64,000 nt of DNA from Oligoflexia bacterium. GTDB taxonomy: Bacteria; Bdellovibrionota; UBA1018. Shown here in pieces: positions 44,433-45,365 of this stretch (position 1 is its first letter; each line of letters begins with the position of its first letter). A program made the position numbers and the translations under genes. Below the pieces are notes generated by a model. It made no database searches. It had not been told where the DNA came from and saw only the letters and a list, made by a program, of their open reading frames with translations. The stretch covers positions 384,001-448,000 of the forward strand of contig CAVWVI010000001.1 in NCBI GenBank assembly GCA_963758495.1, written 5' to 3'.

Positions 44433-45365
44433 CTAAAGTTTAATTTCTAATACATCTTTATTACAATCTTTCTCCCTACAAAGTGGGCATTTTTTATTAT
44501 CTGATGATCGCATTACCTGAGTGTAACATTCATGACAAAAAAGATGATTACATTTTGTCTGATTTAATTTCGTTTTTTCAGGTAGGCAATCATAACACAC
44601 CGGACACTGAGTAGCGAATTCAAGTTCTTCGATCTGACTTTTAAGAAGTTCGATTTCAGCCTCTTCGGAAGGCGTCTTATATTGGAGCAAGTTGAGATCA
44701 GCTAATTGCTCCTGTTTTTCTTTCTTTTGATTATCAAGTGCTTTCATCATGGAGATTCTATAAAAGCAAGATTCTCCTACATTCCTAGTTCGCTCATCAT
44801 TCCATTCACCGATATCGATACCTCTAGCAATAATCGTAATCCCCTGCTTATTTTGGATTAGAGTTTTATACTCTTCAAATCTGCTATTCAGCTCTTGCAA
44901 TGACCTAAACATTTGATAACGATCACCAGCCACACCAAAATCCCTGACGAGACCATGATTCCTAACGATAACACCGTCCCCTACAGTAGCAGAACGCCCG
45001 ACTCTAGCATACAATCCAACCATCGCACGAATCCCAATATCAGCATCAACTCCAATGACCGCACCAGATCCAATCATTGCACCATTACCAATCGTCGCCC
45101 CTTTTGAAACAGTAGCCTGACAAACTTGAGCGTACTGATGAATAGTGGCTTGATTCCGATATCCATGAAAGGTCAATTTTCTTGAGACGTTAGACCCTCT
45201 CGCTATGAACCCACCCAAACTTTCATCCAAATTTTTAGTGCATTTCCCGGGTAGCCCACCACAAGGAGGTGACTGCCCATCTTTATAGCACCAACGATCT
45301 GCCGCATTTGCACTAGAACTAAAAACTATAGATATGAGAACTATTAATGCAGATGTTAATTTCAT
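44433..45365 (-). CDS. Secreted protein with hexapeptide repeats, coiled coil and C3HC4 RING finger
   Basis: Signal peptide ..SANA; (A/G)xIG hexapeptides; C-x2-C-x14-C-x-H-x2-C-x2-C-x12-C-x2-C. Confidence 0.85.
   Translation of the reverse strand: MKLTSALIVLISIVFSSSANAADRWCYKDGQSPPCGGLPGKCTKNLDESLGGFIARGSNVSRKLTFHGYRNQATIHQYAQVCQATVSKGATIGNGAMIGSGAVIGVDADIGIRAMVGLYARVGRSATVGDGVIVRNHGLVRDFGVAGDRYQMFRSLQELNSRFEEYKTLIQNKQGITIIARGIDIGEWNDERTRNVGESCFYRISMMKALDNQKKEKQEQLADLNLLQYKTPSEEAEIELLKSQIEELEFATQCPVCYDCLPEKTKLNQTKCNHLFCHECYTQVMRSSDNKKCPLCREKDCNKDVLEIKL

Follow-up and report, generated by a model that had tools for sequence, protein, structure and literature searches.

A leader-bearing C3HC4 RING protein and its putative ubiquitin-ligase relatives in a clade of Bdellovibrionota

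Zinc-binding RING ligases have hardly been described from bacteria. A review of October 2026 lists AvrPtoB, NleG, LubX, GobX, RavN and SneRING as bacterial RING/U-box effectors, and names one characterised Zn-binding example among them, SneRING (PMC13720258). This protein of Simkania negevensis is reported to be active with UbcH5b and UBE2T (PMC12591485; PMC13720258). According to the same review, bacterial counterparts of HECT, RBR, RCR and RZ ligases are not yet identified (PMC13720258).

Ubiquitin-domain expansions in bacteria are described as marking amoeba-associated lineages (PMC4209131). Neochlamydia, with its NEX1b RING/U-box-LRR proteins, and Amoebophilus have lineage-specific, modular expansions of ubiquitin domains combined with repeats, as does the genome described below (PMC4209131, PMC8831229). 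The chlamydial families (Parachlamydiaceae) consist mostly of F-box/BTB proteins and bear type III signals, whereas the present genome combines Sec-type leaders with RBR and Deltex domains and yielded no injectisome in our searches. A further relevant system is TssM of Burkholderia, a ubiquitin effector secreted by a type II secretion system (T2SS); this is taken to imply a cytosolic bacterium (PMC10719079). TssM is a single USP deubiquitinase, in contrast to the large shuffled family of putative ligases considered here, for which a T2SS route is proposed.

The window analysed in this study is a stretch of 64,000 nucleotides from an Oligoflexia bacterium (Bdellovibrionota; UBA1018; assembly GCA_963758495.1, contig CAVWVI010000001.1, positions 384,001 to 448,000 of the forward strand). 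The genome, designated G000, is 92% complete and amounts to 3.66 Mb, spread over 5 contigs. The window encodes P0001, which, like SneRING, is a bacterial Zn-binding RING protein proposed to use host E2s. SneRING is an atypical RING with few paralogues, whereas P0001 belongs to another phylum and has a canonical C3HC4 pattern, a leader, a solenoid and about two dozen companions. The domains are already in databases under automatic NCBI names ('RING finger family 4 domain-containing', 'IBR domain-containing protein [Bdellovibrionia bacterium]'). We found no published description of Bdellovibrionota RING effectors or of a bacterial RBR in a search of mainly open literature; supplements may list such proteins. 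By its sequence, P0001 alone would represent a new architecture, and together with its paralogues it appears to belong to an undescribed ubiquitin arsenal of Sec/T2SS type, with RBR candidates, in one clade.

The P0001 gene and the domains of its product

The P0001 gene (Table 1) has a stop-free translation, and its dicodon score is 0.17 per codon against a genome median of 0.22. Its GC content is 0.398 against 0.436 in the window and, ranked among all genes of the genome, falls between the 10th and 25th percentile; within the gene, the N-terminal module has 0.47 and the linker and RING have 0.32-0.38. A first, sequence-only reading of the window had placed the gene in an AT-rich patch, convergent with a TolC-like gene. 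The dip exists, but it is mild and incidental. The convergent neighbour has no TolC match in Pfam or NCBIfam at cut-off, and it reaches OEP in one stretch (E=0.09; 13.6 vs 22 bits, below cut-off) where two repeats are required, so that the TolC assignment fails; a remote TolC/OEP kinship may exist. Two of the five lipoprotein paralogues are convergent with a RING gene, which we take as coincidence. Since 17 related loci had no gene context in common beyond generic two-component genes, both the neighbour and the AT-rich patch appear to fall outside the system. Promoter and terminator scans stayed at chance level (5 vs 5.6 expected).

Table 1. Positions of P0001, its parts and other genes discussed in the text (plain numbers refer to the window; labelled positions refer to genome G000)
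Feature	Position	Strand	Details
Gene for P0001, 310 aa	44433..45365	(-)	Leader, Cys module, beta-solenoid, helical linker, RING-HC
Sec-type signal-peptide-like leader, aa 1-21	45303..45365	(-)	M-K, hydrophobic core, A-N-A before A22
Cys module, aa 22-72, without Pfam family, caps solenoid	45150..45302	(-)	Motif W-C-x6-P-P-C-x-G-x-P-G-x-C-T-x-N-x-D-x-S-x-G-G-F-V/I-A
Hexapeptide / YdcK-like beta-solenoid, aa 73-145	44931..45149	(-)	PF00132; PF18836 in relatives; fold matches
Predicted beta-hairpin and long helices, aa 164-252, stalk of mobile putative ligase cassette	44610..44876	(-)	Helices H190-225, H232-252
C3HC4 RING C254-C296 (window 44478-44606) and linchpin R297	44475..44606	(-)	V256, P294, L295, R297
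Neighbour gene, lipoprotein-like, one of 5 paralogues, faint OEP/TolC likeness	42731..44428	(+)	Convergent with P0001 gene
Adenylate-cyclase protein, ExoY / edema-factor kind, leader-bearing, 348 aa	58087..59133	(-)	PF03497 35.5 vs 25 bits; 8bjj weakly, E 0.004
Full RBR proteins	C4:226948-228537, C4:41195-42997, C2:78015-80531, C5:154058-156496, C3:745315-747771		L045, L043, L032, L069, L125
WWE-RING-DTC-RWD-ARTD15_N-PARP fusion, 864 aa, leader	C1:146136-148730 (L029:137-2731)		DTX3L E 2e-37, PARP16 E 4e-12
Nine-member large-protein family	C2:72162, C3:1349076, C3:1353468, C3:37959, C3:471406, C5:16319-25511		

A gene of this kind could be an artefact, that is, eukaryotic or giant-virus DNA that was mis-assembled or mis-binned, and one genome of the phylum, G060, provides a precedent. 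Its contig C4 (L015, L072, L073) carries giant-virus-type RNA polymerase and DNA polymerase genes together with E2 and RING genes in a bacterial bin. The P0001 gene, by contrast, is intron-free, lies between ETF-QO and CrcB genes on a contig of 578 kb that also carries a 16S gene of bacterial type, has paralogues on all five contigs of G000, and shares its architecture with proteins in other genomes. The chance of an artefact is negligible, and this explanation is largely refuted already. Two short contigs identical to parts of the gene were found in soil runs, possibly from the source sample; such matches, short identical pieces only, came from three runs of one study. A search for RNA data containing the gene listed none.

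The adenylate-cyclase gene encodes a candidate for a second leader-bearing, eukaryote-directed protein in the window. Cyclases of the ExoY / edema-factor type depend on a eukaryotic activator. Other genes of the window encode an ice-binding-like PF11999 domain followed by six DUF7933 repeats (35461-38502, minus strand) and an NHL-repeat lipoprotein-like product in two overlapping, apparently frameshifted frames (38614-40799, minus strand; frames 40023-40799 and 38614-39888, bridge 39776-40078). A leader-bearing ricin-type lectin protein of 707 aa (L208:160-2280) overlaps window positions 1-2079.

Leaders were called by eye and with a hydropathy heuristic. By this heuristic, the N-terminus of P0001 is leader-like (hydropathy 3.3 over 10 residues) with an A-N-A cleavage motif, in agreement with the signal peptide proposed from the letters alone. 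The small Cys domain of that reading is also borne out: C26, C35, C42 and C82 are kept across the family, and C26, P34, C35, G40, N45, G51, G52, F53 and A55 are invariant or nearly so. The repeats that follow score 27 bits against PF00132, whose cut-off is likewise 27 bits; in relatives, the corresponding match is to PF18836, the YdcK beta-solenoid, and the look-alikes in the Atlas are YdcK solenoids, in the main phage ones. The length of the solenoid varies widely among family members.

An AlphaFold model of P0001 (26 sequences, mean pLDDT 74) starts with a leader helix and a confident Cys module, continues with the solenoid and a hairpin joined to two long helices, and ends in a RING that is again confident. 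Residues 31-90 have a pLDDT of 81-94, whereas most of residues 105-164 are below 50, and the solenoid past residue 105 is of low confidence. Subject to these low values, the left-handed helix of 3mqg matches the model over 82 residues (Z 10.4, rmsd 1.4 A); in contrast, the modelled relative P0008 superposes on right-handed helices of autotransporters at 2.7-3.1 A, compared with about 12 A for left-handed helices. The two models conflict on handedness: of the left-handed hexapeptide helix first proposed, the solenoid itself is real by sequence and model, and it may be left- or right-handed. An LbH hexapeptide acyltransferase or gamma-carbonic anhydrase identity was rejected, as every NCBIfam enzyme model scored far under its cut-off (best 30.5 vs 160.8 bits). 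The coiled coil noted ahead of the RING corresponds to long helices in the model, and this stalk cassette aligns with G000 proteins at C3:857587 and C3:951635 and with P0020, P0030 and P0151.

P0001 is a RING-HC protein by every feature that can be tested in its sequence, and the canonical C3HC4 finger of the earlier reading was placed exactly. Its pattern, C254-x2-C257-x14-C272-x-H274-x2-C277-x2-C280-x12-C293-x2-C296, has all eight Zn ligands in cross-brace spacing and passes four curated Pfam cut-offs (PF00097, 28 vs 21 bits; PF13639, 33.7 vs 27.3; PF14634; PF13923). The closest PDB sequences are human RING2, RNF4, TRIM21 and BRCA1 (E from 2e-8). The motif arose in 0 of 100,000 shuffles of P0001; across the 3,219 called genes of the genome it was observed 12 times, and shuffling all of them 20 times produced none. 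In the model, residues 251-310 have a pLDDT of 86-96, and the top Foldseek rows are all RING E3s (prob about 1.0, E only 0.02-0.1), several with an rmsd of 1.6-2.6 A over 50-70 residues. A viral fold search gave matches at RING level only (E >0.001).

In RING E3s, a cationic linchpin, mostly Arg, positions ubiquitin (PMC12326332). R297 of P0001 aligns with the linchpin Arg of RING2 and RNF4. In 24 aligned family RINGs, which were chosen by similarity to P0001 so that conservation is inflated, all seven Cys are present in every sequence, His in 22, I/V/L256 in 23, Pro294 in 23 and Arg297 in 23; P0002, a cluster duplicate of P0151, and the RING-less P0003 were left out. Judged by sequence, the E2-contact surface and the cationic linchpin are kept, and the P0001 RING probably works with a eukaryotic E2.

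A Trp in the central helix is typical of many strong monomeric RINGs. The central helix of P0001 has none, and position 284 is variable in the family, which would suit a decoy or adaptor that binds host E2s or pairs with host RINGs and blocks them without ligation. SopA and NleL, which are delivered by type III secretion, differ from P0001 in their unrelated, HECT-like catalytic domain and in their repeat. They are like it in having a beta-helix before the E3 catalytic part, the proposed substrate site (PMC11354881), and by analogy with SopA the P0001 solenoid could bind host ligases. On the other side, the linchpin Arg, kept in all but one of the aligned RINGs, serves transfer more than binding, and the RBR paralogues retain the catalytic Cys. 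We consider a pure decoy improbable.

Mosaic relatives and the ubiquitin-related repertoire of the genome

The P0001 family was built from a HMMER search of 1.84 billion representatives, which gave 448 matches at E<=0.001, the best 150 of the 448 being listed; a word-indexed homologue search with 1,198 candidates returned P0001 itself as the sole match. The Cys-module motif was present in 44 of 156 proteins examined. A hydrophobic leader preceded it in 40 of the 43 such proteins with a readable N-terminus, as compared with 11 leaders among 61 RING matches without the module. In 23 of the 44 a RING forms the C-terminal end, and the remainder end in a kinase, in domains without assignment, or directly after the solenoid. 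The named records of the family carry the titles Bdellovibrionia or Oligoflexia bacterium; the genome family in question may be UBA1018 of GTDB (class Bdellonasia in PMC13200544).

Residues 6-141 of P0001 match a leader-bearing Ser/Thr protein kinase of the same genome, and residues 167-308 match ankyrin-RING and ankyrin-Sel1-RING proteins. P0001 is thus a mosaic of an N-terminal module also found on a kinase and a C-terminal cassette also found behind ankyrin/Sel1 repeats. At the sequence level, the stalk-RING cassette is paired with varied repeat domains and the Cys-solenoid module with varied enzymes. Substitution rates in paralogue pairs were mixed overall and carry no weight in the argument: dN was below dS in an ANK-RBR comparison (0.24 vs 1.65) and in two RING pairs (0.10 vs 0.17, 0.08 vs 0.28), above it in a tandem trio (0.19 vs 0.12), and two comparisons were saturated. 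Another genome, G295, has dozens of Cys-solenoid copies over many contigs, many of which stop right after the repeats.

A census of G000 gave 23 proteins, 17 RING and 6 RBR-like, after a 53-aa ORF among 21 HMM matches had been removed as spurious and three ankyrin-RBRs had been added through their Rcat motif; PF13639 accounts for 15 matches. In 19 of the 23, the N-terminus includes a stretch whose hydropathy reaches 2.0 or more, as against 1,073 of 2,533 other genes, membrane proteins counted, and the other four have stretches of 1.81-1.97. The complete RING1-IBR-Rcat unit, catalytic Cys included, occurs in five proteins, and all five have leaders; three of these units lie behind ankyrin repeats and two have Lcl_C-like tails. 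A shorter type with RING1 and an Rcat-like part is encoded at C3:187825, and truncated or split RBR copies lie at C2:117112 and C3:741769-742863.

Two of the RBRs were compared with ARIH1 and aligned across RING1-IBR-Rcat (E 3e-11 and 7e-10), including the catalytic G-C-x-x-M-x-C motif, and their IBRs pass the Pfam cut-off. The top Atlas matches of the one RBR submitted were eukaryotic RBR clusters (0.93). The paralogues thus share with eukaryotic RBRs (ARIH1, HOIL-1) the domain order and an aligned catalytic Cys, and are still putative as ligases. They are unlike eukaryotic RBRs in their leaders, in their ankyrin or Lcl_C-like fusions, and in the residue two positions after the catalytic Cys, which is F, S, Q, H or A instead of the invariable eukaryotic His. 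The WWE-to-PARP fusion (Table 1) shares its DTC and PARP16-like domains with Deltex and PARP16.

A domain scan covered 51 proteins picked by eye, 45 of them from the 3,219 called genes of G000. Further leader-bearing proteins of this genome have F-box, ankyrin, Sel1, protein-kinase, phosphoesterase and ExoY-like domains. Lcl_C-like C-terminal domains were found in 18 G000 proteins and FGE-sulfatase-like ones in 8. Diversification of such tails by a DGR was considered and rejected, as no template repeat bearing adenine-only mismatches accompanied 26 tails; RT frames of 437-579 aa were seen. Nine large, mostly leader-bearing proteins share a conserved N-terminal region (Table 1), and the one scanned has HEAT repeats. 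Polymorphic-toxin-like genes with an Ntox21 tip and a pretoxin HINT domain are located at L211:3186-6617 and L212 (C1:70185-73619, C3:954231-956699).

L206/L207 (C3:1011650-1018965, C3:253183-254565) encode three secreted enzymes of family GH30, of which one has ricin-type lectin repeats; their best match is 5ngk, a beta-1,6-glucanase. A fungal host deduced from these enzymes was rejected, since GH30 occurs in only 2 of 30 genomes and GH18 was absent in 5 of 5. The set is not common to the clade and is at most a lead on a fungal host for the G000 species only.

Profile searches of G000 for E2 (UQ_con, PF00179) and ubiquitin (PF00240) gave no match, and Prok-E2_B found none anywhere, controls included, which makes that profile uninformative. 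As G000 is 92% complete, an E2 gene may lie outside the assembled part. A self-contained Ubl-E1-E2-RING operon was rejected given the lack of PF00179/PF00240 matches, unrelated neighbours and a leader on the RING.

Distribution of the domains in Bdellovibrionota

PF13639 RINGs were found in 9 of the 75 genomes of the G000 family and not in the other 66. At E<=1e-5, PF00097 was present in 7 of 401 genomes of the phylum; none of 14 controls had a RING. By these counts, RING domains are confined to a few genomes of the phylum; the wide occurrence in free-living bacteria that would have spoken against an E3 role was not seen. Five of the seven positive genomes belong to the family; the others are G060 and G181. 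In G181, of another Bdellovibrionota family, a leader-bearing RING-HC protein of 181 aa (L218:1453-1998) lies near small secreted-looking genes and is possibly a second, independent case. IBR was detected in 8 of the 401 genomes, seven of them within the family, and the full Cys module in 8 of the 75 family genomes, with six more showing weaker, mostly repeat, matches. G060, for its giant-virus-like contig, and G109, whose short locus lacks a leader, were left out of account, since both are probably contaminated.

An RpoB tree with 29 rows (G000, 27 family relatives hand-picked from 74, and one outgroup) united the ten RING/IBR-positive genomes and one negative congener in a clade (99/99, with a slightly unsettled bootstrap). 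The RING/IBR label required 2 changes on this tree, as compared with a mean of 8.4 after shuffling. This clade is defined by the trait itself, and further negative genomes may sit inside it; no RpoB match was found for G418. Strong ankyrin matches occurred in 6 of 12 clade-side genomes and 6 of 18 others and are not clade-specific.

Secretion, lifestyle and the proposed role of P0001

A T2SS is encoded in one cluster of G000, with GspC, D, E, F and G past their NCBIfam cut-offs, and PilQ/PilM and two Tad-type secretins are found apart from it. Because GspD/T2SS is present in 30 of 30 relatives tested, the system is background and no marker of the clade. No injectisome was found in G000, the sole FHIPEP gene being flagellar FlhA, and searches for the T6SS sheath (VipB, PF03135) gave nothing. 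A VirD4-like gene belongs to an integrase-linked, conjugative-type cluster of about 11 kb (C3:295396-306511) that the VirB4 profile missed and that was not found in 4 relatives tested. As other systems were not found, Sec followed by the T2SS is the remaining route for leader-bearing proteins.

An ATP/ADP translocase, a common mark of intracellular parasites, was found neither in G000 nor in RING-positive relatives (61 genomes searched). G000 is not reduced and keeps loci for a flagellum, a type IVa pilus and two Tad pili, as is typical of bacterial predators. Could P0001 act without any eukaryote, as a zinc-binding or adhesive protein of the periplasm or cell surface in predation on bacteria, or within an undetected bacterial ubiquitin-like system? 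The missing translocase is in keeping with this, as are the abundance of YdcK-type solenoids in phages and bacteria and the predatory habit of the phylum, which has Tad/Kil in most genomes (PMC13200544). It is opposed by the negative E2 and ubiquitin searches of G000, by the leader, which would part the RING from cytoplasmic E1/E2, and by the lack of RINGs in 66 of the 75 family genomes searched. In addition, RBR, Deltex, F-box and ExoY-like domains require eukaryotic partners. Such a role is very unlikely.

The simplest account is an exported ligase acting on eukaryotic ubiquitin, because the catalytic surface is kept, no partner was found in the cell, and the leader would separate the RING from the cytoplasm. 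We therefore favour, as fairly likely on sequence grounds, P0001 being a Sec/T2SS-exported E3 mimic that uses the E2-ubiquitin of a eukaryotic host. That it acts in a eukaryote at all is likely. The sequence-only reading had proposed an E3-mimic effector, which the kept surface, the missing partners and the restricted distribution of the RING favour; by viewing a lone protein, it missed the arsenal. The leader would direct P0001 through Sec to the periplasm, where disulfides probably form in the Cys module, and the T2SS, present in the genome, would carry it across the outer membrane.

The T2SS does not pass proteins across host membranes. Since it stops short of them, the bacterium would most likely reside in the host cytosol or in a compartment that leaks, which follows the argument made for TssM of Burkholderia; release through the T2SS from inside the host, which is proposed by analogy, is evenly balanced in our estimate. 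The host is probably a microbial eukaryote. There, the Zn-loaded RING would bind host E2-ubiquitin, held closed by V256, P294/L295 and R297. The helical stalk may dimerise P0001, and the Cys-capped solenoid, swappable with ankyrin/Sel1, would select the substrate or the location.

The same E3 activity could also be delivered by a bacterium that stays outside or in a vacuole, with OMVs or the T2SS releasing the protein to the medium, AB-toxin-like entry, and the solenoid, or the Lcl_C/FGE tails of the paralogues, binding the cell surface. The numbers of such tails in G000, the occurrence of the Cys-solenoid module without any catalytic domain, the unreduced genome and the missing translocase agree with this. 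P0001, however, has no evident translocation or pore domain, and its solenoid fills the slot that ankyrin/Sel1 repeats have in the paralogues, which points to protein binding; entry of this kind is unlikely. The favoured E3-mimic reading is itself weakened by the missing translocase, the unreduced genome, the predator-type pili and ankyrin repeats that are not clade-specific. A seven-Cys finger would also have to be loaded with zinc in spite of its passage through the oxidising periplasm, which counts against it and raises the question of how multi-cysteine zinc fingers survive Sec export.

In G000, 17 RING proteins stand beside five candidates for complete RBRs and a fusion of Deltex with PARP. 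This arsenal suggests that a phylum studied for its predation on bacteria includes an association with eukaryotes that is undescribed, and the T2SS could serve the whole effector repertoire. The balance is even, on the sequence evidence, as to whether a clade of Bdellovibrionota has moved from bacterial prey into microbial eukaryotes with a combinatorial effector library exported by Sec and the T2SS, without an injectisome. If so, the library would combine Cys-solenoid, ankyrin, Sel1 and Lcl_C/FGE modules with domains of the RING, RBR, Deltex-PARP, F-box, kinase and cyclase types. The clade's RBRs would then be the first genuine RBR ligases from bacteria, with P0001 as the founder of a new family of RING effectors.
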